The notes under the pieces were generated by a model. The model saw only the letters and a program-made list of their open reading frames with translations. It searched no databases and was not told the DNA's origin. From Okamejei kenojei (taxonomy: Eukaryota), in the NCBI GenBank assembly GCA_035221665.1, contig JAVHYY010000297.1:186001-250000 (forward strand): a stretch of DNA of 64,000 bases, given 5' to 3'. Of the stretch, positions 15,551-61,862 are shown piece by piece; position 1 is the first letter of the stretch, and every line of letters begins with the position of its first letter. A program made the translations under genes and the position numbers.

Positions 15551-15589
15551 GGATTCGATGTAGCTGTTAGTGTGATAAGTGCACATGTT

Positions 15590-19658: not shown

Positions 19659-20015
19659 CCAGAACGTGCAGTTGGACGGGGGTTGTGAAGGTGTAGGTAT
19701 CAAAGCCGTCCACTTCCACGTAGAAGTAGTACACATCAGAGTCTTCGGATCTGAGGTGATTGATCTGCAGCGAGCAGTCTTTCTCTCGCAGGTTACCAAC
19801 GATTTTAGCCCGCCCCTTGAACCCGGCCATTCCGTAGTTGGGATCTCTGGAGTAAAACACTGTGTACTTCCAGTGGTACCAGTACTTGAACCACGCTCCG
19901 TGGATAGCGGTGTAAGGATGCGAGGGGAAGTTGAGCGTACAGGGTATCACCACGCAAGACTTCCTGATGGCACGATGGGACCGAGCCCGCATGGTCCATT
20001 CACCCGACTGCACGC
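19659..20015 (-). CDS. Siglec/MAG-like gene, Ig V-set exon
   Basis: Acceptor tccag|GC, donor CTGG|GTGAG, 357 nt, phase 1-1. Siglec-type features: SCVVIPC, GAW, GRAKIVGNL-x-x-x-DCSL (E-strand Cys), D-x-x-x-YYF, YTF. Resembles MAG domain 1. Confidence 0.9.
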
Positions 20016-20479
20016 CTGGAATGGTGGAGCAGATAAGTTGACGGGAGTGTTAAATGGTGCGGCAGGAAAACTAAAACAGCAATAGACAATCTACTGAAAT
20101 GATTAAGGTTAAGTCATTGGTACCTTCAACAGAAAAAATAATATTCTGACTTGCTGCACATTTTATGCAATTACATAGCTACAGTATGCCATAATACAAA
20201 ACAATCAGAACATAACCTTTCTACTGTCATAGAGTTAAGGTGAAGGGGGAACTTTTAATATGAATCTGGGGGGTATCTTTTTCGCAACAAATGTTTAGTT
20301 TAGTTTAGTTTAGTTTAGTTTAGTTTAGTTTAGATACAGAGTGGAAACAGGCCTTTCTGCCATCCATATCCGCGCCGACCACCGATTCCCGCACACTAAC
20401 ATTATCCTACACAGTAGGGACAGCAAGTGTACGAAACGACAGAGGAAGTAGTCGACGCAGGGACTATTGCAACAAAGAA

Positions 20480-22140: not shown

Positions 22141-22289
22141 TAATCCTTTGTAAATATATTCTCGCTTCGCGGTTTTGCGCCTCATAAATCCGAACGACAA
22201 ATATTAATAACATAATCGATATAGCAACAGATCGCAGGAGATCCTGGAGAAAATCTACGCAGTTCACTGCGAGAACGTACGCATTCCGT

Positions 22290-23940
22290 ACAGACCCCAC
22301 CGAACACATTTCCACATACCTTGACGCCATCCTATCCCCCTTTGTTAAATCCCTCCCCACCTATGTTCCAGACACCTCAGACACTCACCGTCGGCTCCGT
22401 GCATTCCATTCTCCAGGCCCCCATCCTCTCATCTTTACCATGGACGTCCAGTCACTCTACACCTCCATCCCCCACCAGGACGGTCTCAAAGCCCTCCGGT
22501 TCTTCCTCGACCAGAGGAGCAACCCATACCCGTCCACTGACACCCTCCTCCGCCTAGCGGAGTTGGTCCTTACCCTCAATAACTTCTCTTTCGATTCCTC
22601 CCATTTCCTCCAAACACAAGGCGTAGCTATGGGCACACGCATGGGCCCCAGCTACGCTTGCCTCTTTGTTGGGTACGTCGAACAATCCTTGTTCTCGGCG
22701 TACCAGGGCCCCATCCCGACCTCTACCTCCGTTACATCGATGACTGCTTTGGTGTCACCTCCTGCACCCACACACAACTGACTGACTTCATTCATTTCAC
22801 CACCAACTTCCATCAGGCACTCAAATACACTTGGACCATTTCCGACATTTCCCTACCATTCCTTGACCTCACCATCTCTATTGCAGGTGATACACTCCTG
22901 ACCGACATCCACTACAAACCCACCGACTCCCACAGCTACCTGGACTATACCCCGCAACACTGCCCTCTCTCCCCATTCCCCCACTCGCAAACAGGGCAGA
23001 GTCCCCCTGGTTCTCACCTTTCACCCCACCAGCCGGCAAATACAACAGATAGTCCTCCGCCAGTTTCGCCACCTCCAACGTGACCCCTCCACCCGCCACA
23101 TCTTCCCATCTCCCCCCCTGTCTGCCTTCCGCAAAGACCGCTCCCTCCGCGACTCCCTTGTCAATTCTTCCCTCCCCTCCCGCTCTACCCCTTCCCCGGG
23201 CACTTTCCCTTGCAACCGCAAGAAATGCAACACTTGTCCCTTCACCTCCCCCCTCCACTCCTTTCAGGGACTCAAGCAGTCCTTCCACGTCCGACAGAGG
23301 TTCACCTGCACCTCCTCCAACCTCATCTACTGCATCCGCTGCTCCAGATACCAGATGATCTATATCGGTGAGACCAAGCGGAGGCTTGGCGATCGTTTCG
23401 CCGAACACCTCCGCTCGGTCCGCAAAAACCAACCCGACCTCCCGGTCACTCTGCACTTCAACTCCCCATCCCATTCCGTATCCGACCTCTCGGTCCTGGG
23501 CCTCCTCCATGGCCAGAGTGAGCAACACCGCAAGTTGGAGGAACAGCACCTCATATTCCGCTTGGGGAGTTTGCATCCTTTGGGCTTGAACATTGAATTT
23601 TCTCAATTCTGTTAACCCCTGCTGTCTCCTCCCCCTCCCACCTCTCCCTCAGCCCTCGGGCCCTGGCATTCCCTCTATCTCTATCTCCCTCCCCCACCTT
23701 AGTCGCACTAGCTTCTCATTTTCACACCACAAACAGCTTACAATGGCTTGTTCCCTTTATCATCGATACTTTTTTGCATAGCTTTCATTCATTGTTCTTT
23801 ATCTCTCATCACCGTCTATATCTCTCGTTTCCCTGATCCCTGACCAGTCTGAAGAAGGGTCTCGACCCGAAACGTCGCCTATCTCCTTCGCTCCTTAGAT
23901 GCTGCTGCACCCGCTGAGTTTCTCCAGCTTTTTGTGTAAC
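22290..23940 (+). mobile_element. Penelope-like retroelement (RT plus GIY-YIG endonuclease), 5'-truncated and internally deleted
   Basis: MDVQSLYTSIP, GVAMGTRMGPSYA, YIDD, FLD, YKPTD, YIGETKRRL..RFAEH..HF. 3' repeat carries a hammerhead-like motif. Confidence 0.9.
23845..23880 (+). ncRNA. Minimal hammerhead-ribozyme-like motif of Penelope element
   Basis: CTGAAGA-A-GGGTC/TC/GACCC-GAAAC-GTC: conserved core, stem II and GUC cleavage triplet. Stem I is very short. Confidence 0.6.
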
Positions 23941-27689: not shown

Positions 27690-30390
27690 AGAGAGAGATT
27701 AATGCAATAGAAAGGAAGGACATTAGCTTGGAGGATGTGGGATCGATATGGGTAGAGCTGCGAGACACTAAGGGTCAGAAAACGCTAGTGGGAGTTGTGT
27801 GCAGGCCACCTAACAGTGGTAGTGGAGTTGGGGATGGTATCACACATGAAATTAGAAATGCGTGCAACAAGGGTAAAACAGTTATAATGGGTGACTTCAA
27901 TCTACATATAGATTGGGTGAATCAAATTGGCAGGGGTGCTGAGGAAGAGGCTTTATTGGAATGTATGCGCGATAGTTTTCTAAACCAACATGTAGAGGAA
28001 GCAACGAGAGAGCAGGCTATTCTAGACTGGGTACTGAGTAGTGAGGATAGGGTTAGTTGTGTTCTGTCTTGTTGTGCGTGGACCCTTGGGCAAGAGTGAC
28101 CATAATATGGTTCAGTTCTTCATTAGGATGGAAGTGACATGGCTAATTCAAAAACAAGGGTACTGAACTTCCAGAAAGGTAACTTTGAGGGTATGAGACG
28201 TGAATTGGCCAAGATGGACCGGCAAGTGATTCTTAAAGGGTTGACGGTGGATTTGCAATGGAAGGTATTTAAAGACTGCATGGATGAACTACAACAATTG
28301 TTCAGCCCAGTTTGGCAAAATAATAAATCAGGGAAGGTTGTGCATCCGTGGATAACAAGGGAAATCAGGGATAGTATCAAAACAAAAGATGCATACACAT
28401 TAGCCAGAAAAAGCAGCCTACCAGAGGACTGGGAGAAATTAAGAGTCCAGCAGAGGAGGACAAAGTGCATAATTAGGAAAGGGAAAATAGATTATTAAGG
28501 AAAACTGGCACAGAACATAAAAACGGTCTGCAAACGTTTTTATAGATATGTGAAGAGAAAAAGGTTAGTTAAAACAAATGTAGGTCCGTTGCAGTCAGAA
28601 ACTAGTGAATTGATCATGGGGAACACGGACATGGCAGACCAATTGAATAACTACTTTGGTTCTGTCTTCACAAAGGAAGACATAAATAATTTGCCGGAAA
28701 TAGAAGGGGACCGGGGGTCACATGAGATGGAGGAACTGAGTGACATCCAGGTTAGCCGGGGAGTGATGTTAGGTATATTGAATGGATTAAAGACCGATAA
28801 ATCCCCAGGGCCAGATAGGCTGCACCCCAGAGTACTTAAGGAAGTAGCCCCAGAAATAGTGGATGCATTAGTGATAATTTTTCAAAACTATTTAGATTCT
28901 GGAGTATTGGAGGTTCTTTAGGTTCCTGAGGATTGTAGGGTAGCTAATGTAAACCTACTTTTTAAAAAGGAGGGCGAGATAAAACGGGGAATTACAGACC
29001 AGTTAGCCTTAATCGGTAGTGGGGAAAATGCTAGAGTCAGTTATTAAAGACAGGATAGCAGCACATTTGGAAAGCGGTGAAATCATTGGACAAGGTCAGC
29101 ATGGATTTATGAAAGGTAAATCATGTCTGACGAATCTTATAGAATTGTTTGAGGATGTAACTAGTAGAGTGGATAAGGGAGAAGCTGTGGATGTGTTATA
29201 TTTGGACTTTCAAAAGGCTTTCGACAAGGTCCCACATAAGATATTAGCATACAAACTTAAAGCACACGGTTTTGGGGGTTGAGTATTGATATGGATAGAG
29301 AACTGGCTGGCAGACAGGAAGCAAAGAGTAGGAGTAAACGGGTCGTTTTCTGAATGGCAGGCAGTGACTAGTGGGGTACCGCAAGGCTCAGTGCTGGGAC
29401 CCCAGCTATTTACAATATATATTAATGATCTGGAAGAGGGAATTGAATGCAACATCTCCATGTTCGCGGATTACACGAAGCTGGGGGGCAGTGTTAGCTG
29501 TGCAGAGGATGCTAGGAGGCTGCAAGGTGACTTGGGTGAGTGGTCAAATGCATGGCAGATGCAGTATAATGTGGATAAATGAAAGGTTATCCACTTTGGC
29601 GGCAAAACAGGAGTGTAGATTATTATCTGAATGTTGACCGATTAGGAAAAGGAGAGATGCAACGAGACCTGGGTGTCATGGTACACCAGTCATTGAAAGT
29701 AGGCATGCAGGTGCAGCAGGCTGTGAAGAAAGCGAATAGTATGTTGGCATTCATAGCAAAAGGATTTGAGTACAAGAGCAGGGAGGTTCTACTGCAGTTA
29801 TACAGGGTCTTGGTGAGGCCAAACCTGGAGTATTGCGTACAGTTTTGTTCTCCTAATCTGAGGAAAGACATTCTTGCCATAGAGGGAGTACAGATAAGGT
29901 TCACCAGACTGATTCCTGGGGTGGCAGGACTTCCATATGAAGAAAGACTGGATAGACTCGGCTTGTACTCGCTGGAATTTAGGAGATTGAGGGGGGATCT
30001 TATAGAGACTTACACAATTCTTAAGGGGTTGGGCAGGCTAGATGCAGGAAGATTGTTCCCGATGTTCGGGAACTCCAGAACAAGGGGTAGCAGTTTAAGG
30101 ATAAGGGGGAAGTCTTTTAGGACCGAGATGAGAAGATCTTTTTTCACACAGAGAGTGGTAAGTCTGTGGAAGCCTCTGGCACAGAAGGTAGTTGTGGCCA
30201 GTTCATTGGCTATATTTAAGATGGAGTTAGATGTGGTACTTGTGGCTAAAGGGATCAGGGGGTATGGAGATAAGGCAGGTACAGGATACTGAGTTGGATG
30301 ATCAGCCATGATCACATTGAATGGCGGTGCAGGCTCGAAGGACCGAATGGCCTACTCCTGCACATATTTCTATGATTCTGCGATTCTATG
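27690..30390 (+). mobile_element. CR1-clade LINE (endonuclease C-half plus RT), same family as the 14.1-15.5 kb copy
   Basis: MGDFN, ILDWV, SDH, KSPGPD, GVPQGSVLGP, FADY; same 3' UTR. Confidence 0.92.
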
Positions 30391-34947: not shown

Positions 34948-35861
34948 TCATGACTTACGCAACTTAATTAACGAATGCAATTGGTTGAATGGATATTTCA
35001 CCATTGCCTTCACCTGCTCCCTGAATTTATTTTGTGTCACTGCATAAAGGAACGTGTTTGTGCAGCAGCTCAACAATTGAAACAAATTACCACTTTCCAT
35101 CAATATAAACCTGGGGTCACTGTAGCCATTAATTTTATAACCAACTTGAAACTGCTCTACAAAAAAACGGATAACATACGGCATCCACAGCAGGATGAAA
35201 CATCCCGAGATGGCAAAAAGGAGGATAATGGACTTCCTGCGGTTTTCAATTTCCGGGTCGCTCTGTTTCTCACCCGTGGAGCCAGAACGCAGTCTCTTCC
35301 GTACTCGACTGGCCACCAGTATATACCGGACGGTCAGTGCATTGAACACGATGACAAGAATGAATGGGAGACAAGGGGTTAAAATCCGATCACCCCAATC
35401 AAATATTATCCACAAAAGGAAAGAATAACTGATATCCCTCCGTTTGCAAAACCACGGGACATTGTCAGTGATATAGATGGGTTCGTGCAGGAAGTACCAG
35501 GGAACATTGATCAGACAGCCCAACGCACAGACGGTTGAGACAACAATGCCCGCCGTTCTGTGGGTGCAATATCTTGCTTTGAGCTTTTGGCAACAGATGG
35601 CTACAAATCGATCAAATGTGAACGTGACTGTGAGCCACACCGAACTGTCTCTCGCTGCATAAATCAACGCAATGCTGAAACTACATATGGGCGTTATGGC
35701 GAGGAAGCTACCCGGAAAATAAATAGCGGGTATCCGATTTAACATCACTGCAGTGAGAATGACCAAAAGATCCGTCACCGCCATAGACAGGAGATACCGG
35801 CTGATACATTTGGACAGGCCGCAGTTTCCTCGGGACAGTATCACAATCGCCACTAAATTAA
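34948..35861 (-). CDS. GPR139/GPR142-like class A GPCR, coding exon 2 (TM1b-TM7 and C-tail); intact, 327 aa in total
   Basis: Acceptor tttctcttgcag|TT. Seven-TM pattern with AVTDLL (TM2), TFDRFVAIC (DRY variant), FILLWMP (TM6), NTFLY (NPxxY variant). Stop TGA at 34950-34948. Confidence 0.9.
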
Positions 35862-36417
35862 CTGCAAGAGAAACACGAGGAGTTAGTATCAAAATATATC
35901 CGCAGCAGAAGTTCTGACATAGCCAGAATTACAATGAAAAAACATACAACACTAAAATACAGGAACAGCCCCATTCGCCCAGAATATTTGTACCGAACCT
36001 TATGCCAAGACAAAATAATCTCATTAGGGTGCACATTAGGGCGATCAATTCCCTGCATATCCCTGTGCCAGTCGAAGCACTCTTAAATGCCACTGCTATA
36101 CTTGGATCCATCACCACCACTGAAAACGCGGTCCAGGTGCCCAGCGTTCTCCATGTAAAACTATTTGCCGCATGCGTCTGCACCAAATATGTTCGTTCTC
36201 AGCTTAACTCTATGCCTCCACGTGTTTGTCATTTCCATCGGGGGGAGGGGCGTCACGTGGACGGCGGTGCGAGAACGGGTGGGGGGGTGGTGCTTACTAG
36301 ACAATAGACAATGGACAATAGGTGCAGGAGTAGGTCCTTCCAGCCAGCACCGCCAATCTATGTGATCAGGATAGTCTATCCTGTCGAACCTCATAATTTC
36401 ATATACTTCTGTCAGAA

Positions 36418-37174: not shown

Positions 37175-40100
37175 CTCCGGTGATGGTGGAATAGGGTGAG
37201 TGCCAGTTAGCTCCACGCGAACAAATCGAAAAAAACGTGAATTAAATACAGAACTGACCTGCAGACCTGGAAAATCACCCCGGCAGCCTGCGTGACGTCA
37301 TCAGACCGGGTCTCTGGAGACCTGGTGTCGTTAATGCGCTCCCCCACAAAGGAACCGACTAAACAGCCTACAAAAGTAAAACAACCGCAGGGGGAAGTAG
37401 GCCCGACTGAAGCCTCGGGCTCAGTTATAACATCGTCCCAGGAGGACGTCTCAATGGCCCAGAAGACTAAGACAAAGAAAAATGAAATGGATGAACTTCG
37501 CAACTTCATCACAAGGGAAATTGCCAGTATAAAATAAAAATTCATAAGCTTTAAAAACGAATTGAATGTTAAAGAAATGCTGAAATGTCTTAAAAAAGAG
37601 ATTAAAAAAGACTTCTTAGAGTTTGAAAATAAAATGATTAATCTTGCGCGTTCGAAACTGACTAATATGAAGGATGAAAAGTCAGTAAATTTCGACTCAT
37701 AAATCATTGAAGTAAACTAGAAAATTTAGTCGAATGAAACTAACTTTAATGATAAGCTGGAGTCGACCTTCACTACAATGCAACAGCATTTGGGGCAGCA
37801 AACCGACGCCATAACTCGAAGAAACTACAGAGACACTCCTTGCCGAGAACAAGCGTTTATCAGACTTACTGCATAAAGTAACTGAAAAATGTATTGACTT
37901 GGAGGGCCGTCAGAGACGACAGAACTTAAGAATTCTGGGCGTTCCTGGGGGTAAAGAAGGAAGTAAAGATCTCCGTGACTTTGCCGCAGACTTATTACAA
38001 AAAGTCTTGAATTCAGATCAAAAGCCCTTATTAGTGCGGGCTTGCGGAGATCTTGGACATCGCTCGGACCCAAACGCCCCCCCCCCCCCCCCCCATGGCA
38101 GCTGCAAGCGAAGGTCCAATACGATCATGTTTTGGAAGATATCATGAAAAAAATTGCTGGCACAAGAAATCTGAAGCTTGATGGAGACAAAATAAGCATA
38201 TTTCGAGATTACCCTGCTGAGTTGGTCAGAGGGAGAGCGTTATTCAACGAGACAAGGGGGATTCTAAAGAAGATAGACAAATTGAAATATGGACTGCTGT
38301 ACCCTGCAAGATTGAGAGCCACTTATCTGCAGACGGCACAGTGTTTTACCGATCACAAGAGAGCATTGGCGTATGCCCAGAAGATTGTGGGTTCGAGTGA
38401 GGACTGAATAACATTCATATAATATCGTCATCTTGCTGAGAATAAATGGAATTAGCTTTACTCAAGGAGTAATGAAAGCTGATAACGACAATTGTGCAGT
38501 TCCTCCTGTTATGGGCATGTTATTCTAATATTGTTGTACTAATTCTTACTAACAATAATTAATCACTAAAAATACTTGTTATTATTATTGGAATAATTAG
38601 TTAATAACATGAAATGTAAAACAAAAGGTAAATTTAGTTATCTTATTAACTGGAATTTGTTATGTTCTTCCTTTATTTACATAAGACTAACATTTGACTA
38701 ATAATTAACTAAGAGAGTAATAATCTCTCACTATATGATTACTAGCACTCTGGACCAAAATACTTTAAATGTAATCCCGTAAATCACTCGTATTCAAATC
38801 TTTCTTTAAAAGCGTGGAGCTAGGAATATTTTTTTTAATCTACGGAAGTCATTAGATGGTCAGCCACGTTAGTGTGGCTAGCACCAACTACGCTAAGTTT
38901 AGATGTAGTTTCATTTTTCTTTTTACACTTTATTAAATTTTTATTTTTTTACTTTTTGTATTTTTTACTTAATTACTATTATAAACTTGAACTAATTTAC
39001 AAATATTATTTGTGGAGATGTGTCCGTGAGGAGGATTTATTTGAATTAGATTTACAACTCATCTGTCCTGTGTCCGGGTGGAATGTCGGATTTACGGTGC
39101 TGAGCTATCTGCTCTTTTATAGACCACCCTAACCACAAGATGCAAGACGTAAATAGAAAATATGGGGGACAAGGAATTTATTTTTGTGGTTGGAATGTTA
39201 AGGGAATTGATGAGTCAATCAAGAGAGGTAAAGTATTAGCACACTTACAATCACTTAAAGCAGACATAATATATATATTCTAGAGACTCAGCTTAAAAAA
39301 GACGCACAACATGGATTGAAAGCAAAATGGATCGCTGAAACATATCACTCTTCATTCTCTCATAAGGCCAGAGGTGTTGCAATTTTAATTCGTAAAGGTA
39401 TTCCTTTTAAACACATATCAACTATAGCGGACACCAATGGTAGATATATTATACTAGTGGGTATATTATATTTTAAAAAGTGATTTTTCTCAATGTCTAT
39501 GGACCAAATTTTGATAACCATATGTTTTTTAAGAATATGCTGAATACTATCGCGGAGCTCACACAACATAATTTGATAATCGGTGGAGATTTACATTGCA
39601 CACTAGATTCCTACCTTGATAGATCATCAAGACATATAAAAGCAAAATCCAAGACAAGTGAACTATTAAACTCATACATCAATACTACCAATATCAAAGA
39701 TGTTTGGAGAATTGAAAACCCATCTGGAAGGGAATATTCATTTTACTCATCAGTACATAAATCCTATTCAATGATAGACTATTTCTTAGTAGATTCTAAC
39801 CTTATCCAATTTACTTATAATTCTAAATATCATAATATTATAATTTCGGACCATGCTCCATTAACATGTATGGTCAAACTAAGTGGAATGACTGATAAGC
39901 AGACGCAATGGAGACTTCATCCTCAAATTTTAAATGATTAAGCATGTTACGAATATCTTATCAAACAGATAAATATGTTTTTTTTAGACAAATGACAGCC
40001 CTGAAATTATTGCCTCCCTTCTTTAAGAAACATTTAAAGCATTCATAAGAGGAGCGTTAATCTCCGCACAAGCCTTTCGTAATAAAGAGAACCGGGCCAA

Positions 40101-43100
40101 ACGACGGGTATCGGAAATGGAAATAAGGGAATTAGATATGAAAAACGCAATCGTGCCTTCTATGATAATACATAATAAATTTGATGCACTCAAATATAAT
40201 TTAAATAAAATATACTCAGACCAAATCATAAAATGCTATCAAAAGACTAAACAGTTACACTTTGAATGTGGTGATAAACCACAAAAATTAAACACGCCAA
40301 CTCCGGAAACAGGAAGGGGAAAAAACAATATATAAAATTAAATCAGATACGGGAGAAATATTAACACTACCCAAGGATATTAATGATAGATTCTCCCATT
40401 ACTATCAAACACTTTACTCAACGAAAACGGCAGTGGGTTCTGCAGGAATGGAATTACTCTTACAGAATTGTAACCTTACTGGTTTGGACTTGAAAGAGAG
40501 GAAATTATTAGGGGCCGAAATATCATTAAAAATATTGAAGAATCTATTAGTTCTTTAAAAAATGGAAAGGCCGCTGGCGCAGATGGTTCAAATAGTGACT
40601 TTTATTTAAAAAACCATGATTCGATCTCGCCAGGCTTACAGACATTATATACTCAAGCATTCATGCAACAGAAACGTCCAGAAACTTTAAATGAATCAAC
40701 AATAATACTTATACCAAAAACGGATAAGGACCTCGAAGACCCAGGTTCATATAGAGCAAATGCTCTCATAAATACCGATCAGAAAATATTAACCAACATT
40801 TTAGCACATAGATTAAGCTTAGTGATTCATAAATTAATACACCCCGATCAAACTGGCTTTATACGAAAACGTTATTCATATTATAATCTGAGACGATTAT
40901 TTTACATTATATACTCAAATCGAATAGCTAATGTGGATTTAGCAGTCATCTCGCTAGATGCAGAGAAAGCATTCGATCAAGTTGATTGGCCCTATTTATT
41001 TTCGGTGATGAAACATTTCAATTAGGTGAGAAGTTTTGTACTTGAGTAAAGCTTCTATATACCAAACCAACAGCCAGAATATTGACAAATCAAATGTTAT
41101 CAAAAAAAATTGATTAATCTAAAGGTTGTAGACAAGGATGCCCGTTATACCCGTTACTATTTGCCCTAGTTATTGAACCACTAGCAGAAAGAATTCGACC
41201 ACATCCAGAAATATATGGGTATAATACTAAAAATACAGTTAATAACATTTCTATATATGCAGATGATGTATTACTATATATTACAAATCCAGAAATTAGC
41301 ATATCTAACCAGTTAAATCTTATAACTCAATTTGCTTTATTCTCGGGATACAGAATCAATTGGAATAACAGTGAGATTATGACAATAATGGAACCTAATT
41401 TATATATATTGCAACAATCACCTTTTAAAATAGTGAACGAAAAATTTAAATACTTAGGGATTTATGTGACCAAGAAATATACCTCCTTATTTAAATCAAA
41501 CTTCCTATCTTTACTTAATAAATTGCATAAGAATATTCAATATTGGAAAACACTTCCCATTTCAATGCTCTGTAAAATTAATGCTATTAAAATTATTTTT
41601 CTTCCCCAACTTCTATACCTCTTTCAATCAATTCCGATATATCTCCCTAAAAATGTATTTACAAAAGTCGACTTGATTGTAACAAGTTTTATTTGGGATT
41701 ATAAGAATCACAGGATAAGTAAAAAAAACACGTATGTAAACACAAGACGAATGGAGGATTAGTTTACCAAATCTCTTATTTTATTTCTGGGCAGTCAATG
41801 TCAAAACTTAAATTTCTGGTGGGAAGATATGGATCAACAACCAGACTGGTTAAAGATGGAAAAGGAGGATTGTCTGCCATTTGAAATAGGCCCGATTCTG
41901 TAAACTCCCACAAAATTGAATACAAAAATCTATAGTGAAAATCCAATAATACATAGTGGTATTCGAATTTGGAAACAAATAAAAAAGACATTAACATTGG
42001 ATAATTTATCACTTTTGCTCCACATTGCAAATAACCCTTCATTTAAACCTTCAGTATTGGATAAAGGTTTCGCACAATGGAAATATTATGGAATTATAAA
42101 GATGGGACATCTTTATAGAAAAGGTGTGTTCCTCTCGTTTCAGGAGGTACAACAGAATTATGGATTACATGCAAATATTTATTTTTTAGATATTTACAAT
42201 TTAAAGATGATGTTAAATCACATACACAAGAATACAGAATTTGAGAGCTAGAGATTCTAGATGAATGTTTGAATAATCACCCCAACACAGTCAAATTAAT
42301 ATCTTACATTTATAATATTCTTTTAGATAGTGAGAAACCGTCGACGGAATTACATAGACAAGCATGGGAAAATGAACTAGCTCAACCCATAACGAAAGAT
42401 ATCTGGGATGAAAGTCTACAACATATACATCACTGTTCGTTAAACGCCAGACATTCATTAATATAATTTAAAATATTACATAGATATCATTATTCTAAAA
42501 CAAAATTAAATAGAATTGTTCCTAATATTTCTCCTATCTGCGATAAATGTCAATATTCTGGGACTAATTTAACCCATACCTTTCTAAGTTGCATAAAAAT
42601 TAAAACATTCCGGGTGTATATTTTTAAAATTATTTCCGTAGTCGTTAATACTCAACTGGAATCCGATGCTAAATTAATAACATTGGGCATATCTGAACAA
42701 TACCTAAAACTTACAATAAAGCAAAGAAACTTCCTTGATTATAGTATAATAACTGGGAAAAAATTATATTAAAATTTTGGAAAAACCCTGCATCCCCCAC
42801 AATCAAAATCTGGATTATGGAGATGTCGGAGACCTTAAATCTGGAAAAAAATGGATTTGTCTTAATCGACAAAGCAGAATTATTTACTAGAATATCATCT
42901 CCATTCATAAATTATTTGAAGGGGTAGAATGGACCCGCGCTGATACCTGACGGAAGCTTGAACCCAGAACTAGATGAATAGCTATGCTTTCTTACCTACG
43001 GTCCTATATCCTAAGTTGTATTATGGATAGTTTATTTTATTTTTCTAATTTTCTTTTATTTTTCTTTATTTTTTCTATCTAAACAAAAGGGAAGAAAAAC
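37175..43100 (+). mobile_element. Near full-length degraded L1-clade LINE (ORF1 ~37450-38407, ORF2 ~39140-42930) inside the GPCR intron, antisense to the gene
   Basis: ORF1 motifs (RRQNLRILGVP, LLYPARLR), APE endonuclease (WNVKG, GGD, IDY, SDH), RT (DAEKAFD, RQGCP, YADD), C-terminal Cys region. Many stops and frameshifts. Confidence 0.9.
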
Positions 43101-47769: not shown

Positions 47770-50743
47770 AAACGAGCTTTAAATAATTCCTTGTGTTTCT
47801 TGGTGATCTTAATACCTAAATAAGTAAGACTTTCGGTAGACAGTCTAAATGGAATCTGACTATAATTCAAAATAAGATTATATAATGGTAAAAGGTCACT
47901 CTTACTAAGATTTAGTTTCTAACCAGAAAAACTACTAAATTAATTTAGTAATGCCACTATTGCCGAAATAGATTTCTCAGGGTTAGAAATAAACAATAAC
48001 AGAACATCAGCGTAAAGAGATAGCTGATGTGTCTTCTTGCCGCGGACAATACCAAAAATATTAGGTGATTCCCTAATAGCGGTGGCTAAAGGCTCCAAAG
48101 CAATATCAAATAGTAAAGGATTTAAGGTACAGCCCTGTCTAGTACCACGAAAGAGCCTGAAAAAAGGGGATATCTGATTATTAGTAAATACAGAAGCCTG
48201 AGGTATATGATACATCAGCTTGATCCAAGAAATACATTTTGGACCAATCTTAAATGTTTCAAGTGTATTGAATAAATAATCCCATTTTACTCTATCAAAC
48301 GCTTTCTGAGCATCAGCATTCTGGGGTTTTATTATACGCTGTATATACAATATTCATTAATCTCCTACCGTTAAAGTATGAGTAACGATTTTTAATAAAT
48401 CTGGTCTGATCCTCAGAGATAATTTGCGGTAAAATATTTTCTAAACTCATAGCTAATATTCTGGAAAGAATTTTGAAATGTACAATTAACATTGATATAG
48501 GTCTTTATGATGACACTTCAGTAGGGTCTTTATCTTTATTAAGCATTAAATAAATAGATGCTTCATAAAAAAGATTGTGGAAATCTATTTCTTAAAAGGG
48601 CTTCTTTAAATACCTTACGTAGACATGGAGACAATACATTTGAAAAATATTTTTGAAATTCAACTGTAAACCCATCAAAACCGGGAGCTTTACCAGAATT
48701 CGTTGAAAAGATTGTTTTCTGTATTTCTTCTTCCGTGATGGGTTCATCAAAATACAGAGAGTCATTATATGGTAAATTTGGTAAATGCAGTTTCTTTAAA
48801 AACTCATGCATTATATTGGAATCAGTAGGAAAATCTGATTGGTATAGAAATGTATAAAATTCTTGAAAGGATTTATTAATTTCGTCATGGTCTACAGTTA
48901 CTGTACCACCCCGTTTTCTCAATTTAGCAATCTGATGCTTCGCCGACACCGATTTCAATTGATTAGCAAGTAATTTACCAGATTTTTCGCCATGTATATA
49001 AAATTCACTTTTGGTTTTAAGTAACTGGTTCTCAATCGGTGATACTAATAGCAAATCATGTCTCAATTGAAGTTCAACTCTATTCTTTTGGAGCTTTAAA
49101 CTAGGAGCTTTTGAATATTTTTATCAATATATTTAATCTCGTCAGCCAATGTACATATTTCTTTTTGATTTTGTTTTTTTAATCCCGCGGAGTATGAAAT
49201 AATGTGTCCACGAATATGTGCCTTAAAAGCACCGCAGACTACACCATTGGATATTTCTTCAGTAGAGGTTGTCAAAAAGTAAAAAGCAATCTGATCTTTC
49301 ATAAAATTAATAAAATTTAAGTCTTGAAGAATAGTAGCATTAAAACGCCATTGTTTAGCACTAAACTTGGAAGCAGGTAGATTGATTGATAGTTTCAAAG
49401 GTGCGTGATCAGAGATAGCGATTGCGTCATACTCACATGCAGTGACCGATGGAACTAGCCGAGAATCTAATATAAAATAGTCGATCCTAGAATAACTATG
49501 ATAGACATGAGACAAAAATGAAAATTCTTTGTCATTTGGGTGAAAAAATCTCCAAACTTCTAACATTCCAGAATCAAGTAAAAAATAATTAATCAAATTA
49601 GCTGATTTATTTGGAAGCACATGATCAGATGCAGACCTGTCAATCGCGGGGTTAAAACAACAGTTGAAATCTCCACCCGTTATTAAAAAGTGTTCATTTA
49701 AATTAGGAAAGGAGGTAATTAATTGTTTACATAACTCAGGATGATCAATATTTGGTGGGTAAACATTCACAATAGCAACTTTTTGCATGTAAAGAGCACC
49801 AGTAATAACCAGAAATCTGCAATTAGGATCAGAAATTGTTTCATTGTTAACGAACGGAATTGAGGGGTCAATAAAAAAAGAGACTCCTTTAGCCTGTGAG
49901 ATTGAATGAAACTGCTGACCTCTCCAAAACTTTAAAAATCGTAAATTGTCATCTTGCCTTACATGGGTTTCCTGAGCAAAGATAATGTGAGCATTTAATC
50001 TGTGAATAACTTTAAAACAAATCCATTTAATGGGATGGTTCAAGCCATTCACATTCCATGCAAGAAAATTAATAACTTCATCCATATTGCTTGTAAAAAT
50101 CATGTGGGATGGAATGGGTTAATTTCTTGAAGCTTAAATGTTCACGATACTGGAACAGGAAAAGGCCAGGGCGGAGCCAGATGTGACGACATTTCAGACA
50201 TTTATGTAGTGCAAACTTTGCACAAATGGAAAACACTAAATAGCGAACCAAGGACCCCTCCCCCCACCCCTCTCCCACCCCCGTAAAGCCCCAAACTGAC
50301 CAATATACAGTCAGCAAGCTACCTAATCCCATCCCCGAGTCCATCTTCCTAGCAACTGTGCTCGGCATAGAGATAATAATTTTAACCACCCCTAGTCAAA
50401 ACACATTCCCCATTATCTCTTTGAGAGAGTAGGAAAAAAAACAGACTGGCATGAAGTTAACAAGCGAGGCTACATATTATTATCCAAGGTCAGGATTTGA
50501 AAAACAAAAACTGCATTCTCTTAGTGTGTCTAATGACAGGGAAACACGAAATCAACAAAGACATTCTTAAAAGACTATTTATAAAAAAATACAATTCTTC
50601 GATTTAAATTCTTAATCATTACCAAACGAAATATTGTCAAAATAGGAACAGTAAATCTCCAGTTATAACTTAATCAGCTATCGACTGGTCCGCTTCCTCC
50701 TCGTAGCTCTCCAGAAAGCTAGAGGCGTCTTGAGGATTATTAA
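47770..50743 (-). mobile_element. L1 LINE, inverted 5' segment (ORF1 C-terminus, endonuclease, RT)
   Basis: WNVNGL..QETH..GGDFN..RIDY..SDH at 49096-50103; RT QGC/YADV at 47940-48350; ends at YLGIKITKKHKELFKA. Confidence 0.9.
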
Positions 50744-51333
50744 AAAATAGTAAGATTAAACGAGAACTTACCAGTTCGAAGTTTGATCGTTATTTTATGA
50801 GGAGTAACGATGAGGGATTACGTGAAGAAGCCCCGCCTGGCGCTTGAACGGCATACTTCAAAGCAGCGGCATGAAAAACACAGAACATAATAGCCGGAGT
50901 AAAATAGTACGGCTCAACATAGATTTAGAACTACCAGATGATCATTTATTTTATGAGGGTCGGGAGTGGAGGGCACGTAATCCCTCATCGTCGCTCCTCA
51001 TAAAATAACGATCAAACTTCGAACTGGTAAGTTCTCATTTAATCTTACTATTTTACTTCGGAGTCACGTGAGTGACTACGTGAAGATTTTGAAGCTTCTG
51101 TGTTTTTTATGTCGTAGAGTCATTCCATAAGACAGTCCGGCTAAGTCAACACATAAATGAGTAAATAACCTTTTTACCAGATCAGTTTTAGTTTTTTTTC
51201 ATAAATCTTTTAATGATAAAAGAACAAATAATAACCCCTTTTTTACATCTGGGGAAAATCACTACAAAGTGATAAAAGATATAAGTGATAACATAATGGA
51301 TAATATAAATCGATAGTGAAACAAAGCAGGTGA

Positions 51334-52306
51334 TTATAGTGAACCCAACACCGCGTGTCCAAAGCCTGTCATTGTGAGAACAGGTTTATCGTAGAACTTT
51401 GAAAAAGTTTCTTCTTTACACCACCCTGCGGTTTCTAAAATGTGTTCGTTTAGTACATCCTGTAACTTCGCCGCGGACGTAGCTGCTGCCCTGGTGGAGT
51501 GAGATTTAAACACATCAGTGTCTACACCTGCTAAAAGGAACACCTGTTTTAACCACCTTGAAATTGTTTGTACTGATGCTTTTGTGTGTGGTTTCTTATG
51601 CGTAATCATTAACACTTTTTCATCACCTCGAAAACTCTTGGTAACTTTTATATATTGAGTCAAGTGTCTAACTACACAACGTTGGATCAATAGCGTAAGC
51701 TTGAAACATTACCTTCGCTCCAGTTCTCCCTGGTCTGCTTTGTTTGATCAGATCGTAAACGTAAAACACAATGTTATCTGAAGCCACATGCATACAATCT
51801 AAACCTAGCATTTGCAATGATTGCACTTTTTGTGCTGATACCAACGCCATTAACATTACTAATTGAAATGTTAACTTTTCCAATGATATAACTGTGATTG
51901 GAGTCCATTGCCTAAGCAAAGTAAGTATAATGCTGACATCCCAAATTTCTGTATATCTTGGTTTGGGCGGATTTTGGTTAAAAATTCCTTTCATAAATCT
52001 GCATATTAATGGATGAGATCCAATTGATTCATGGTCAGAAATTTGTCCTAAATAGGATGATAAAGCACTACGCGCACTATTAATGGCACTATAACTCAAG
52101 TGCTGCTCAAAATACAACTCAGCAAGGAACTCCAATATGTTTGAAATGTTCACAGTATGATAAGATATATTTGATTGTCTACAAAAAACTTCCCATTTCT
52201 TTATATGTGTCATATATTGTCTCTGAGTACTATCTCGCCGTGATGAGACTATAACATCCATGGTTCTATCCGACAATCCAAGCGCTTGTAGTGGTCTGGT
52301 CAAAAC
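51334..52306 (-). pseudogene. DIRS-A tyrosine recombinase (frameshifted, catalytic Arg to Lys)
   Basis: Aligns with the DIRS-B YR. SAQKV instead of SAQRV; frameshift near 51680; HSTR, AGW and FY retained. Confidence 0.88.
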
Positions 52307-55300
52307 CTGCAGATTAACACATTCATATAAACATGTAATGGATGAATTTCTTTTGTTACTGGTTTTATTAACAAATCACTGCAGCTAGGAATTGACATAT
52401 ATGGTTCCTTAATCATATTTAACATCAACGGGAACCATGGTTGTGTGGGCCAATTTTGAATCACCAACAGTCCTGTGGCAGAATCTTGTTCTATTTTCTT
52501 CAGACATTGCCGAACCAGAGCAAATGGAGGGAAAGCATAAAATAACATATTTCCCCAATGTAGCGAAAAAGCATCTACTGCTACTGCATCTGGATCGGGT
52601 TCCCAAGACACATATTTAGGCAATTGATGATTTAATCTTGATGCAAACAGATCAATGTCTGATAACCCATACCGAATCACAATTTTACTGAAAACGTCTG
52701 GGTTCAACATCTATTCTGTGTTGTCTTTAAACACCCTTGATTTGTTGTCTGCCACCACATTGTCTTTACCTGGGATATAACTTGCTGAAATCCAAATTTG
52801 GTCCTTAATACACCATTGCCATATATGATTGACCAGACAATCACATGATACCGATCTTACTCCACCCATGTGATTAATATATGCAACAGCTGTCTTATTT
52901 TCTAATTGTATCTGTACATGCAGATTCTTTTTTGTAGAACAATAGGCTTTTAATCCATAAAATGCCCCCAATAAATCCAAATAATTAATACCATATGTTT
53001 GGAGAAACAATTCCTCTTGGGCAGTCCACCTGCTCCCACAGCTGGTAAATGTATCTGTCGCCCCCCATCCGAGAGCACTTGCATCTGTTTGTAAAAATAC
53101 TTCAGGCTGCTGTATTAAAATGTGTTTAGCAGCATGTGGAATATTTTAAATCCACCATTGCAATTCCAATAAAGCTTCTTTTGTTAACTGCATAGGCCTA
53201 TCAAAATGGCCTGCTCGCTTTTTTAAAGCTCGTATTTTGTCCCTTTGAAGGTTTTGGTAATGTAATGGACATTTCCATTGCAGGAAATGCTGCTACTAGT
53301 TTACCAATAACCTTCGCTACTTCTCGGATGGAGGGATAAGGTTTGTGAATGAGGCCCCAACATACCATTGAAATATCAACAATCTTGTCCATTGGCAAAG
53401 TTACTAACATAGTAACTTAATTAATCACAAAACCTAAATAGTTAATTGTCTGTGCTGGCTGCAGCTTGGACTTAATTGGATGAATCAAGAACCCTAATTT
53501 TTCAAATAAAGTTTTAGTTGCTGAAACTGATTTTCCAGCTGATTCCTGATTATTACTGACAATTAAATTGTCATCCAGATAAGCCATAATGATGTGCTGT
53601 TGTGCTCTTAATTGCGCTAAAGCTGGTTTCAACAGTTTTGTGAAGAGCCTGGGAGCTGAACTTAAGCCATTAGGTAATGCTTTAAATTGCCACAGCTGTC
53701 CCAGCCAATTAAACTTTAAATACTTTCGAAAAAATCGATGTATTGGTACTGAATAGTACGCATCCTTTAAATCAATTGTAGCCATATTACAACCTGCTGA
53801 TATCAAATGCCTTGCAGTGTTGAACGTTTCCATCTTGAAATGTTTATACTGGACAAATGTATTAAAGTTTGTAAGGTCCAGAATAATTCTACAACCACCA
53901 TCTTTTTTATTTCTTGGAATGATATTTGACACAAATTGGTGTTGATGCTCAACAGTTATTTCAATAACACCTTTTTTTTAAAACAATTTTCAATTTCCAC
54001 ATTAATTTCTGCTTCCTCAATAGCAGAGAACATGAAACCATAAGTAGGTTTATTTTGTACTGGAGAATCAACACCTTCTTTAAATGTTATTGTAGGTCCT
54101 GAAACTCTTTGTAAAATAAACCGGTCAGATGTGATGGAAAGCCATTCATCATAGAACATTTGTAATCTCCCACCAACTGGAGATTCGTCCACAGTTTCTT
54201 TAAGAACAGAATAACGTTTTTGTACCTCTCCATATGAACGTGGTGGTCTCCTTCTCCCCGTATACGGGTGAACATTAGGCTGTGTTGGATGGTAATATTA
54301 TCTTAACATATTCCTGCCTCTGTTTCCAAAATCAAATCCCCTTCTTGATGATCAAATCCCCTTCTTGATGTATAGTACCTTTTTTGTCCAAAAACGGAAG
54401 GTCACATGTAGCTAATAGATTTACCCTCTTCATCCATCTCTCTTATTTGTTTAACCAGGTTTTCTCCGAATAGATAACCAGGAGATTGAACACCACTTGA
54501 ACGGCACAGACCTGCAAATCTAGGATGAAGTATGGGCCGAATCGCAATTTTCCTCATGCAATTAATTTCATAAAAAGAATTGCACAATAAGCCCAATGTA
54601 TCTCTTTGGATTTTGATCATTTCTGACCCTTCCATTTGCTTTCCAAAAGCAGTAATGGCAGCTGAAATCAGTTTGAGGATTCTTTGAAACCTTATTTCTT
54701 GCCCTCTCATGACTGATGTCATAGGTGTCCATATAGATGGATTAACCGTAGGTACCTTCAATGAGGTGCAATTTTCCGGTGTTTTATATAATTCTGCTGT
54801 TTCAGCCATCACAGAATCTTGACGTTTGGTGAGATACCATATAATTAATACTGGCAGCTAGGTTTTCTTCCACAGCCTCACCACTTCCTTCAGGTATAGC
54901 AAAATCTCTTGCCATATCAGGCACATACGGCCTTTTCTTTTTAATTTGTGGTGTGCACTCATAATCCACATCACCACTTTCAGGGTCTGACTTTTGCAGC
55001 CCTCATATTCCTGGAACTTCATCAAATGGGACTTCCTCCACCCTTAATCCTGGGTCTGGAGTTTCAAATTCCAAATTTGGCACATAGCCATATTCTGGAT
55101 ATTCAAACCCCTCAGGGTCTGTTTGGGAAAGTTCTGGGTACTTTGACCCTTGTCTCATAATATTTTGGAGTACTCTCTCCATATGTTCCATTTTAAGCCA
55201 TATAGCTTTATTATCCGGAGGACTTTCATTATCAGATTCATCATCAGAAACGACGGGCCTCACGAATCTCTTTTTACTTTTCTTAGGAACATTTTCCTCC

Positions 55301-55457
55301 GTGGTTTTTGTTTCTGGAGAAATTATAGTCTCACTAACGGGTGAATCAACAGCCACCGGTATCTGAACCGGCTCCGCACTAGTCTCTTGTCCCGACTATA
55401 GCTTCTCCCCGGGACGATCTTTTTACCCGCGAAATCTTCCTCTGAGACTTCTCCATT
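52300..55457 (-). pseudogene. DIRS-A Gag-RT-RNase H-methylase-like polyprotein, degraded
   Basis: ORF fragments at 55003-55356, 54402-54812, 53417-53932, 52711-53010 and 52300-52710 are collinear with copy B. A 20-bp tandem duplication lies at 54331-54370. Confidence 0.88.
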
Positions 55458-55736
55458 TTCAATTTTTTATTATCTATGCTGGATCAGTACGCCAGCGTGA
55501 CTCTGATTTTTTGAAACATTTTTTACTTTCATTTTTGCTGATTCTACATGCCAGCGTAACGTCTTTTTTAGAACGTCCCCTAAAAAAATAATTGCACTTA
55601 CCTGCGGGCCCGGTCTGACCGCTGAGAGGAGCTGCGCTCTGCAGCTCTTGCTTCTGCCGTCAGCGTCGACGTAATGCCGTTCAAGCGCCAGGCGGGGCTT
55701 CTTCACGTAGTCACTCACGTGCCTCCGAAGTAAAAT

Positions 55737-57104: not shown

Positions 57105-57364
57105 CTATTTTATTTCGGAGTCACGTGAGTGACTACGTGAAGAACCCGCCTCACGCTGGCAACGGCATGACGTCAACGCTGACGGCGCGAGGAGGAGCTG
57201 CAGTAAGGAGCAGCTCCTCGGCAGCGGTCGGAAACGGCCCGCAGGTAAGTGCAGTTAGACCGGGGCGTTTTTTAGGTTACGCTGGGTGGCTCCAGCAAAC
57301 GAAACCAAAAGTAAAATTTATAGCCACGTTAACGTGCTGATTGAGCACTGATTATTAAAGAAAA

Positions 57365-60312
57365 ATGGAGAAATCGGGAAAGAAGTTTTCGCGGGTAAAA
57401 AGATGTTCCCGTGGTGAAAGTAAAAATACGGGACGCGAAGTTAGTGCGGACCCGGTTCCGATACCGTTGGCCGCCGATTTACCCGATAGTGAGTTTCCAG
57501 ATTCTCCAGAAATAATAACCACGGAGGAAAATGTTCCTAAAAAAGGCTGTGGGCCAAGTTGGGAATATGATACTCCGGACCCAGGATTTGGGCTGGAAGA
57601 AGTCTCATGGGATGATATCCCAATTGATTTAGGGCTGCAGAAGGCAGACCCTGCTGGTGCCTGTATGGCTTTTGAAAGCACACCACAAAGTAAAAAGAAA
57701 AGGCCTAATGTGCCTGGGATAGCACAAGATTTTGCTATACCTGAAGGAAGTGGTGAGGCTATGGAAGAAATCCTAGCTGCAAACATAAATTATATGGTAT
57801 CTCACCAACTTCACAATTCTGTGATGAATGAAACATCAGAATTATATAAAGCTCCAAGAAATTGTGCCTCATTGGAAGTACCTACGGTGAATCCGATGAT
57901 ATGGACGTCTATGACTCCAAGTATGAGAGCCCTAGAAGTGAAGTTTCAAAAGGTGCTCAAATTAATTTCTGCTGCCATTACGGCCTATGGCAGGCAAATG
58001 GAGAATCTGGAAATGGAAAAGATTCAAAAGGATACTTTGGGCTTATTATGTAATTCATTCTATGAAATTAATTGCACGAGGAAAAATGGCGATTCGGCCC
58101 ATATTTCACCCTAGATTTGCAAGCCTGTGTCAAGAAAGTGGAGTTCAAGCTCCTGGGTATTTGTTTGGAGAAAATCTGCCGAAACAGCTGAAAGAGTTGG
58201 ATGAAGAAGCTAAATATTTTAGCAATGTTAAACCTTTTGTTTTTGGACAAAGAAGGGGTTTTTCGACCCGAAGGGGTTTCGATTTCCGTTATAGAAGCAG
58301 AAGTTTGTCACGAAAATACTATCGTGCTGTGCAGGCAAGTGCTTCCCTGTATTCGGGAAGAAGAAGACCACCACGCTCATACGGAGAGGTATTAAAGACT
58401 TATATACTTAAAGAAACTGTGGATGACTCTCCAGTTGGAGGGAGATTGCAAAAATTTTATAATGCCTGGCTTAACATTACTTCTGATCGATATGTATTAC
58501 AAGCAGTTTCGGGAGCCATTATTATTTTTAAAGAAGGGGTTAATCCTCCTGTACAGAATAGACCTGCTTATGCTTATGTGTTTTCTGCAGAGGAAAGAAT
58601 GGAGATTAATGTGGAAATTGACAAATTATCTGGAAAAGGCGTAATTGAAAAGACTTATGAACATAAGCATCAATTTGTCTCTAATATATTTCGAAGAGAT
58701 AAAAAAGATGGTGGTTGCAGAATTATTCTGGACCTTACAGATCTGAATAAGTTTGTAGAATACAATCATTTTAAGATGGAGACATTCAGTACTGCAAAAT
58801 ATCTTATCTCAGCAGGGTGTTAGATGGCTAAGATTGATTTGAAGGATGCCTATTATTCTGTAGCAATTCATCAATGCTTCAGGAGGTATTTAAAATTTAA
58901 TTGGCTGGGACAATTATGGCAGTTTAAAGCTTTACCAAATGGATTGAGTTCGGCTCCTAGACTCTTTACAAAACTGTTGAAACCAGTTTTAGCCCAATTA
59001 AGAGCACAGAAACACATTGTTATGGCTTATCTGGATGATATTCTGATCATTAGTGATACTCAAGAGTCAGCTGAGCACTCAGTTTCAGTTACTAAAGCTT
59101 TGTTTGAAAAGCTAGGGTTTTTGATTCATCCAATTAAGTCCCAGCTGCAGCCAGCACAATCAATTAACTTTTGGGGGTTTGTAATTAACTCAGTGACTAT
59201 GTTAGTTACTTTGCCAACAGAGAAGGCCAATGACATCTTGATGACTTGTAATTACCTCATTCACAAACCTTATCCCTCCATCCGAGAAGTGGCGAAAACC
59301 ATTGGGAAACTGGTAGCAGCATTTCCGGCAGTGGAATTTGGTCCATTACATTATCAAAATCTTCAAAGGGACAAAATAAGGGCTCTTAAAGAGAAGGCAG
59401 GTCACTTTGACAGGCCTATGCAATTAACAAAAGAAGCCGTGTTGGAATTACAATGGTGGGTTGAAAATGTCCCACAAGCTGCTAAGAATATCATGATTAA
59501 ACAACCTGAAATGGTTTTACAAACGGATGCTAGTGCTCTCGGATGGGGGGCTACAGATTCGTCCTCCAGTTGTGGAGGTAGATGGAAAGCTCAAGAAGAA
59601 GCGTTTCTTCAAGTTTATGGTATTAACTATTTGGAGTTATTGGGTGCTTTTTATGGACTTAAAGCATATTGTTGTGCTAAACAAGGTCTACATGTGTTAA
59701 TACAGTTAGACAATAAAACGGCTGTTGCATACATTAATCACATGGGGGGAGTTAGGTCAGTATCATGTGATTGTCTGGCCAATGAGATATGGCAATGGTG
59801 TATTGGTCGCCAAATATGGATTTCAGCAAGCTACATTCCGGGTAAGGACAATGTGGTAGCAGATGAAAGGTCCAGGATTTTTAAAGATAATACGGAATGG
59901 ATGCTTAAGCCAGCAATATTTAAGAATATTGTAAAACCAATTTGGGTTGCCAGAAATAGATTTGTTTGCATCTAGGCTTAATCATCAGTTGCCTACTTAT
60001 GTGTCTTGGGAACACGATCCAGATGCAGTAGCAGTAGATGCTTTTTCATTACACTGGGGAAAGATGTTCTTTTATGCTTTTCCACCATTTGCTTTGATTC
60101 AGAGATGCCTGAAGAAGATAGAACAAGATTCTGCTTCTGGATTGTTGGTAGTTCCAAATTGGCCAACTCAACCTTGGTTCCCAGTAATGCTGAATATGAT
60201 TAAAGAACCATATATGTCGATTCCTAACTGTAGTGATATCTTGACTAATCCGGTAACTAAAGAGATTTACCCATTGTATGCATATATGAATTTGTTAATC
60301 TGCAGGTTTTGA
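57365..60312 (+). pseudogene. DIRS-B Gag-RT-RNase H-adenine-methylase-like polyprotein
   Basis: VGGRL, IILDL, DLKDAY, LPNGLSSAP, YLDD, TDAS, INYLEL, DN, IDLFAS, YAFPPF. Lesions: frameshifts near 58085 and 59940, in-frame TAG at 58821. Confidence 0.9.
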
Positions 60313-61278
60313 CCAGACCACTACAGGAGCTGGGATTGTCGGACCAAACTATGGAAGTTATGGTTGCATCATGGCGCAATAGCACACAAAAGCAATATAT
60401 GACACATATTAAGAAATGGGAAGACTTTTGCACACAGTCAAATATTTCTTATGATACTGTAAATATTGCACATGTTTTGGAATTCCTTGCCAATTTGCAT
60501 TTTCAGCAACATTTAAGTTACAGTGCCATTAACACTGCACGCAGTGCCTTGTCGTCCTATTTAGGGCTTATGACTGATCAGAGATCAATTGGGTCGCATC
60601 CATTAATATCTAGATTCATGAAAGGAATCTTTAATATTAATCCACCCAAACCAAGATACACAGAGATTTGGGATGTGAGCATTGTACTTACGCTACTTAG
60701 ACAATGGACTCCAATTGAAGGGTTGACATTGGAAAAATTGACATTGAAATTAGTCATGTTAATGTCACTGGTCTCAGCTCAAAGAGTGCAAACTTTACAA
60801 ATGTTGCGTTTAGACTGTATGCATGTGACTACAGATAATGTTGTGTTCTATGTTTACGAGTTGATCAAACAAAACAGACCAGGGAGATCTGGAACAAAGG
60901 TAACCTTTCAAGCTTATCATATTGATCCTACTTTGTGTGTGGTTAAACATTTGAACGAATATATTAAAGTTACTGACACCCTTCGAGGAAATGAAAAAGC
61001 GTTAATGGTTACGCACAAAAAACCACACACAAAAGCTTCAGTTCAAACTATCTCAAAATGGTTGAAACAGGTGTTGGTTTTAGCGGGAGTAGACACTGAT
61101 GTGTTCAAATCTCACTCCACCAGGGCGGCAGCTACGTCCGCGGCGAAGGGGCGGGACGTACCTCTCGAGCATATTTTAAAAGTCGCAGGGTGGAGTAAAG
61201 ACGAAACTTTTTCAAAGTTCTACAATAAACCTGTTCACCTATGACAAGCTTTGGACACGCGGTGTTGGGAGCACTATA
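60306..61278 (+). CDS. DIRS-B tyrosine recombinase
   Basis: Catalytic set R (SAQRV), K (KQNRP), HxxR (HSTR), W (AGW), Y (FSKFY) all present. A 1-nt frameshift near 61235 truncates the short C-tail relative to copy A. Confidence 0.9.
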
Positions 61279-61862
61279 ATCACCTGCTTTGTTTACTATT
61301 AATTGCTATAATCAATGGTGTAGTCACTTCTATCTTTTATCACTTGTAATCATTTTCCCTCAGATATAAGGAGGGTTATTATATGGTCTTTAAACCATTA
61401 AAAAGTTAATTGTGAAATGATCTAACATTAGTCTGGTTTCTCATGTATGTGTTTACTTAGCCGGACTGTCGTACGGATTGATTCTACGACATAAAAAACA
61501 CAGAAAGCTTTAAAATCTTCACGTAGTCACTCACGTGACTCCGAAGTAAAATAGTAAGATTAAACAAGAACTTACCAGTTCGAAGTTTGATCGTTATTTT
61601 ATGAGGAGTTACGATGAGGGATTACGTGCCCTCCGCTCCCACCCTCATAAAATAAATGATCAAATGGTAGTTCTGAGTCTTTTATGAGCCTTACTATGTT
61701 ACTCCGGCTGTTGGTGTTCTGTGTTTTTCATGCCGCTGCTTTGAAGTATGCCGTTGCCAGCGTGAGGCGGGTTCTTCACGTAATCCCTCATCGTAACTCC
61801 TCATAAAATAACGATCAAACTTCGAACTGGTAAGTTCTTGTTTAATCTTACTATTTTATTTC

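Follow-up and report, generated by a model that had tools for sequence, protein, structure and literature searches.

The 64-kb window, that is, the whole stretch of DNA analysed here, contains two DIRS1-like retrotransposons, copies A and B, in divergent orientation. Their main parts are located as follows:

57107..61855, + strand: DIRS1-like retrotransposon copy B, with ATT...ATT termini
50746..55736, - strand: copy A, ~80% identical to copy B
57107..57179, + strand: left inverted terminal repeat (ITR) of B, complementary to 61516-61554 and 61738-61810
57365..58388, + strand: gag of B up to an internal donor, ~341 codons, running in frame into pol
58389..60305, + strand: predicted intron between Gag and recombinase, holding RT, RNase H and methyltransferase
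60306..61244, + strand: predicted tyrosine recombinase (YR) exon, 312 codons, Pfam PF00589 and PF13495
61516..61628, + strand: internal complementary region (ICR) of B, with the AAT circular junction at 61550-2
61738..61855, + strand: right ITR and right extension of B

Using the definition of DIRS1-like elements by their ITRs, ICR and NTT ends (PMC3266345), we found ITRs, an ICR complementary to both termini, NTT ends and a 3-bp circular junction. The gag of B had no Pfam match; it is an ORF at the expected place with tblastn likeness to ORF1 of related elements. In pol, RT matched RVT_1 (E 9e-19, with YLDD at 59028), the RNase H of B was recognised from the translation only, and the methyltransferase segment of B gave a weak Pfam match (E 0.007) and, in tblastn, matched most relatives where a methyltransferase is expected. 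The YR of B matched PF00589 (E 1e-8) and has the catalytic residues R160, H270-x-x-R273, W296 and Y306. Its closest named match, at 49% identity, is from a skate, and a cartilaginous fish is the probable host; no solved structure was matched by sequence. Copy B is broken by frameshifts near 58082 and 59937 and by a stop at 58821-3, and copy A has decayed through stops, frameshifts and a 20-nt duplication inside gag. Barring the extra base of B near 58082 and the duplication in A, gag and pol form one frame in this family. A and B are two decayed members of a known DIRS1-like retrotransposon family. With the DIRS1-like YR retrotransposons, including Dictyostelium DIRS-1, as described in excerpts of PMC3266345 and PMC7192593, they have in common a gag-like ORF, RT-RNase H and a putative methyltransferase, an overlapping YR, ITRs, an ICR, ATT termini and the AAT circular junction. 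In contrast to those elements, A and B have gag and pol in a single frame, and YR overlaps pol over a short stretch.

An L1-like ORF2 is interrupted near its end by copy B. An identical 10-base sequence is found at the left end of B (57107-57116) and across its right junction (61853-61862), with a one-base difference from the element's own ICR-encoded junction; heteroduplex repair, or homology with the target that extended past the 3-bp ATT, may account for it. Besides a 33-nt run considered below, A and B share identical runs of 33-36 nt at 59255-59290, 57727-57760 and 60015-60047, and the four runs of this length compare with 0.26 expected. Cis-acting elements or gene conversion are possible explanations. 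Elsewhere in the window, a single-exon rhodopsin-family GPCR ORF (34948-35928, - strand) matched 7tm_1 (E 2e-21). Exons at 10570-20049 (- strand) resemble what we take to be an Ig-domain, Siglec/CD22-like gene, and gave no Pfam match in the two frames tested. From their translations, the fragments at 14157-15566, 22188-23615, 28499-30292, 39477-41762 and 47940-50118 are presumably CR1-like, Penelope-like and L1-like.

The expression scheme proposed below addresses how DIRS elements translate their last gene, which encodes the recombinase enzyme for insertion into the genome. A stop closes the YR frame 24 codons (A) or 16 codons (B) upstream of a candidate acceptor (60304-5 in B), and no ATG lies ahead of this acceptor, in agreement with the initial annotation, which had noted the lack of an ATG before the YR start. 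The pol frame ends just past the acceptor, at a stop at 60310-2 in B, and a Met of the YR frame at 60351 (Met16) is common to both copies. The initial annotation had proposed that YR is made from an env-like, gag-free mRNA spliced from a leader donor to this acceptor, and had placed the donors at 57245-6 and 55601-0, the acceptors at 60304-5 and 52308-7, the leader ATG at 57167 and the conserved Met at 60351, all of which are correct. Two further sites were found, a donor with its GT at 58389-90 and, downstream of the others, an acceptor with its AG at 61122-3. The candidate signals are:

57167..57244, + strand: ATG and 26-codon leader of B, starting within the left ITR
57242..57250, + strand: leader donor D1 of B, GT 57245-6 in CAG/GTAAGT, perfect consensus, top-scoring of the 140 GT sites shared by A and B
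55600..55601, - strand: leader donor D1 of A, perfect consensus
58386..58394, + strand: gag-end donor D2 of B, GT 58389-90, phase 0, weak in A and B and strong in relatives
54224..54225, - strand: gag-end donor D2 of A
60290..60305, + strand: YR acceptor A1 of B, AG 60304-5, phase 0
52307..52308, - strand: YR acceptor A1 of A
61105..61123, + strand: acceptor A3 of B, AG 61122-3, at the HSTR codons of YR, linked to D2 by a single contig of public run X2
51491..51492, - strand: acceptor A3 of A
61124..61198, + strand: predicted basic Gag tail and TAA, 24 codons, of equal length in copy A

Sites were scored with approximate frequency tables, and the scores are valid only against controls scored alike. 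The comparison set consisted of the best 80 of at least 310 related loci from metagenome contigs. These are 39-49% identical to the YR of B and fall into 48 families at 85% DNA identity, or 50 with A and B. A search of viral contigs found no relative.

A1 scores 4.2-6.1 bits in A and B and ranks 9 of the 159 AG sites that the copies share. The initial annotation had relied on the identity of this site in A and B; the site is indeed present in both, but identity alone is weak evidence. Its AG is part of a methyltransferase Arg codon, of the 15 Arg codons that the two pol genes share, 11 are AGR in each copy, and three other identical runs are as long as the 33-nt one at A1. The D1 motif, likewise, is at chance level in the window (MAGGTRAGT, 3 occurrences compared with 2.2 expected), and D1 is notable for where it lies and for having been kept in A as well as B. 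The signals of A and B might thus be by-products of coding and shared ancestry, and the join in the contig of run X2 a microhomology deletion. Against this stand the phase locking of the sites, a test on synonymous Ser codons, the conservation of the D2 nucleotides while the encoded residues vary and the position of the X2 join on a site predicted from relatives. We consider it the least probable of the readings.

An AG at exactly the A1 position of B was found in five of the 50 families (best 80 of at least 310 relatives), namely A, B, L060, L067 and L040. In A, B, L060 and L067 the YR frame is closed within 7-23 codons upstream, without an ATG; in L060 and L067, where the acceptor is placed exactly as in A and B, the first Met is at codon 20 and codon 50, respectively. 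Most other families have a YR frame that is open for ~66-100 codons, to or just past the methyltransferase FPPF codons. The FPPF motif was found in 46 of the 50 families and is followed by an AG in 31 (again for the best 80 of at least 310), and this AG is in YR phase 0 in every copy that is not frameshifted. Among the 46 families, 27 had the AG and an open frame, 4 the AG and a closed frame, 4 an open frame without the AG and 11 neither (Fisher p 9e-5); on a quick tree the link comes down to two independent pairs (p 0.5). Ser at the common upstream site is encoded by AGY in 30 families and by TCN in 3, compared with 194:638 in pol, and all three TCN families have a closed YR frame. A 72-codon window in the YR frame was open by chance in 1 of 132 cases.

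Families lacking the AG after FPPF mostly have another strong in-phase acceptor at the edge of a shorter open frame, and several of these alternative acceptors are the very TAG that closes the YR frame. An in-phase acceptor of at least 8 bits with an open YR frame was present in 36 of 44 families compared with 2 of 115 control positions, and these acceptors sit 0-74 codons ahead of the YR core (44 families, best 80 of at least 310 relatives). This count omits six families (three with frameshifts, a misplaced one, a short one and one that gave no methyltransferase match) and includes A and B, which score 4.2 and 6.1. We conclude that A1 is this family's form of a site that shifts in position but stays locked in phase. 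That in-phase acceptors follow the limit of the open YR frame in distantly related families supports the earlier assignment of a YR acceptor at 60304-5, and YR is very likely made from spliced RNA through this site.

Alternatively, YR would need no splicing if ribosomes shifted frame by -1 or re-initiated where pol ends, a route that has been put forward for Ngaro. In A and B, YR lies in the -1 frame relative to pol, which it overlaps, as in Ngaro-like elements; the latter differ in having split direct repeats and no methyltransferase. Frameshifting is called probable for Ngaro by a review quoted in an excerpt of PMC13003380, the one published suggestion for YR translation that we found. In both copies a TTG overlaps the pol stop, and many relatives have an ATG two codons ahead of the core. 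However, the open YR segment of A or B contains no in-phase slippery heptamer, and 8 of 44 families have one. The ATG before the core arises from a methyltransferase Cys codon and is missing in many families, and the phase-locked donor and acceptors would be left unexplained. We consider translation of YR by this route very unlikely.

If YR is made from spliced RNA, D1 and D2 are the candidate donors for A1. Retroviral and gypsy env proteins are made from a subgenomic mRNA that uses a strong donor upstream of gag and a weak acceptor at the end of pol. By analogy, splicing from D1 to 60304-5 would give a gag-free mRNA from which free YR is translated, starting at Met16 or at the leader ATG. D1 has the perfect consensus in both copies and, at 12.8 bits, is the top shared donor. 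Three contigs of diverged copies align through D1 and then break off (joints 57251-57254), no good conserved acceptor lies ahead of the gag ATG, D2 is weak in the A/B family, and Met16 is in a good context and is the start of several homologues' gene calls. In contrast, relatives show no enrichment of leader donors (6 of 23 compared with 3.6 expected; best 80 of at least 310), and L067 has the same acceptor but no leader donor and no early Met. YR codons 1-15, ahead of the first Met, look translated, with 4 synonymous and 2 replacement changes between A and B. They are predicted to be helical (helices at residues 4-8 and 13-20, before or across Met16), which would place Met16 inside a helix. 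The 26 codons from the ATG at 57167 are in frame with YR in B, as had been claimed; copy A has ATT for ATG and lacks 4 nt between this point and the donor, which breaks the frame there, and on the sequences compared the leader is specific to B. The region around the donor had been described as diverged between the copies. Instead, the sequence upstream of the donor is well conserved and divergence lies mainly downstream. Indel differences were also found in two public runs, at contig ends that hang loose at 57220. In B a CRE-like palindrome, TGACGTCA (57168-57175), overlaps the leader ATG, and copy A has a variant of it. A 5' UTR intron from D1 was considered and is unlikely, as none of the candidate acceptors before gag was both conserved and preceded by a pyrimidine tract.

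The env-like route is unlikely in our view, and it stays a rival because D2 is weak in both copies. D1 is probably not the main partner of A1. Since D1 is perfect and D2 weak in both copies, splicing from the leader donor is possible as a family-specific extra, and D1 may be the source of a minor RNA, either non-coding or for free YR, or may act only through U1 binding.

A GAG/GTA is present in both A and B at the same place and in the same phase as the gag-end donor of relatives. This site, D2, scores 4.2-4.5 bits in the two copies and ranks 10 of the 140 shared GT sites. For the relatives, a protein landmark in the first part of pol served as anchor; it was located in 36 of the 50 families (best 80 of at least 310 relatives), and the best donor in the 120 nt ahead of it was taken. 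The gag-end donor reached at least 8 bits in 31 of 34 relative families, in 29 of them in pol phase 0 (same best 80 of at least 310), compared with 3.8% of control windows in pol (n=476), 4.9% in gag (n=226) and 10.3% in antisense (n=476). The residues encoded around this donor vary, and the constraint therefore acts on the nucleotides. Relatives keep a donor after gag and not one in the leader, which argues against the gag-free mRNA as the main route. A strong acceptor near 58590 in B was set aside, as it is outside the top sites shared with A.

D2 joins A1 in frame, which creates a Gag-YR fusion reading frame. In most relatives gag and pol are in different frames, and an in-phase -1 slippery heptamer upstream, with the frame open to the donor, was found in 21 of 29 families compared with 48 of 176 control windows. 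L067 combines the acceptor position of B with a strong gag-end donor and a slippery site, and its best leader donor scores 1.2 bits; with its first Met at codon 50, this arrangement fits only a fusion. The single-ORF relatives L024 and L046 have pairs of strong donors that differ in phase and are separated by 5 nt, at ~70 and 115 nt ahead of the pol landmark. The off-phase donor meets a stop within one codon and would give Gag alone, and these two relatives thus seem to solve the free-Gag problem with tandem donors. Among 176 fetched proteins, five of at least 430 residues contain gag and YR without RT, all of them predicted gene models. In the predicted NCBI gene model P0130, Gag is joined to YR exactly 72 codons upstream and RT is absent. 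No Gag-YR ORF was found among the raw-contig gene calls of these 176 proteins.

A contig of public run X2 joins 58388 to 61124 and skips 2735 nt (58389-61123) with GT..AG ends. The join is seen in one contig (depth 45.6), with a short side of 30 nt, an ambiguity of 3 nt, a permissive likeness of 80 and an alignment that covers the two sides but not the letters between them; of random comparable joins, 601 of 75,208 (0.8%) read GT..AG. It links D2 to A3, not A1, and its 3-nt microhomology also permits a template-switch deletion. The run is probably DNA, and the join may therefore be a retrotransposed spliced copy; the RT of DIRS-1 acts in trans, according to an excerpt of PMC7192593. The product of the D2-to-A3 join would be Gag with 24 basic residues followed by a stop, much as a Copia-type gag-end donor creates a stop. 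Because gag and pol share one frame in the A/B family, free Gag needs another route. At the A3 position, relatives have AG in 23 cases and CG in 11, and the position was not found in 16, which gives no clear sign of conservation of A3. None of the 14 joints listed from four of seven public runs connects D1 or D2 to A1; these are fragmented contigs, which show presence and not absence. Contig depth is higher over 61083-61231, a measure that cannot rank parts. An all-against-all blastn of the best 80 of at least 310 loci returned only non-GT-AG deletions and no spliced contig. A further well-scoring acceptor in the 3' untranslated region (61344-61363) is kept in both copies.

The sequences show where the sites lie, in which phase and frame they stand, how relatives conserve them, and that one contig joins D2 to 61122. 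On this basis we propose that three proteins are made by alternative splicing from one gag-end donor (58389-90), which we regard as fairly likely. Unspliced RNA would give Gag-Pol, splicing from D2 to A1 (60304-5) an in-frame Gag-recombinase fusion, and splicing from D2 to A3 (61122-3) Gag with a short basic tail. In relatives with gag and pol in different frames, the -1 slippery site before the donor would yield Gag-Pol from unspliced RNA and Gag-YR from spliced RNA. Among the mechanisms considered, production of Gag-YR through the gag-end donor is the probable one, and the scheme is well supported by the comparison with relatives. We infer that A1 is used with D2, that the products are translated and that Gag carries the recombinase into the particle.

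The closest parallel to the D2-to-A3 product is the spliced shGAG RNA of Ty1/Copia elements. In Arabidopsis EVD, a conserved gag-end donor within a single gag-pol ORF leads to a stop and a Gag-only mRNA, and this donor was shown to act through U1 binding (excerpt of PMC5580714). No enzyme comes from the EVD splice, which goes together with early termination. The DIRS donor would in addition attach the integration enzyme to Gag, in an RNA that would retain the ICR and both ends. In contrast to retroviral and gypsy env, the conserved DIRS donor lies after gag and its product would be a Gag fusion rather than a free protein. We found no description of native splicing in DIRS elements in the papers covered by our searches; an earlier mention may exist in the Goodwin/Poulter papers or Repbase notes. 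Excerpts of PMC3266345, PMC9210276 and PMC8547959 contain no mention of 'splic', those of PMC6681497, PMC4157794, PMC5633606, PMC9341512 and PMC7192593 only unrelated uses of it, and neither splicing nor a route for YR translation is described in the excerpts of PMC3266345 and PMC7192593. An acceptor in DIRS gag is inferred upon co-option into host genes in an excerpt of PMC4495291, and PMC8226300 merely names DIRS. The expression scheme thus appears undescribed in the literature.

With slightly less confidence than in the scheme for A and B, we favour a rule for DIRS1-like elements across animals, in which a donor at the gag/pol boundary swaps Pol for YR and the integration enzyme is made as a co-assembling Gag fusion. 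The acceptor would have slid repeatedly along the methyltransferase gene, and the pol/YR overlap would vary as a result; families that lost the gag-pol frameshift would have regained free Gag by a second donor or acceptor. If true, this would account both for the missing start codon of the YR frame and for the differing extent to which YR overlaps pol from one family to another. Intron-less, non-autonomous copies would be expected in genomes. The DIRS recombinase would then have to be studied as a Gag fusion, which is relevant to enzyme assays.
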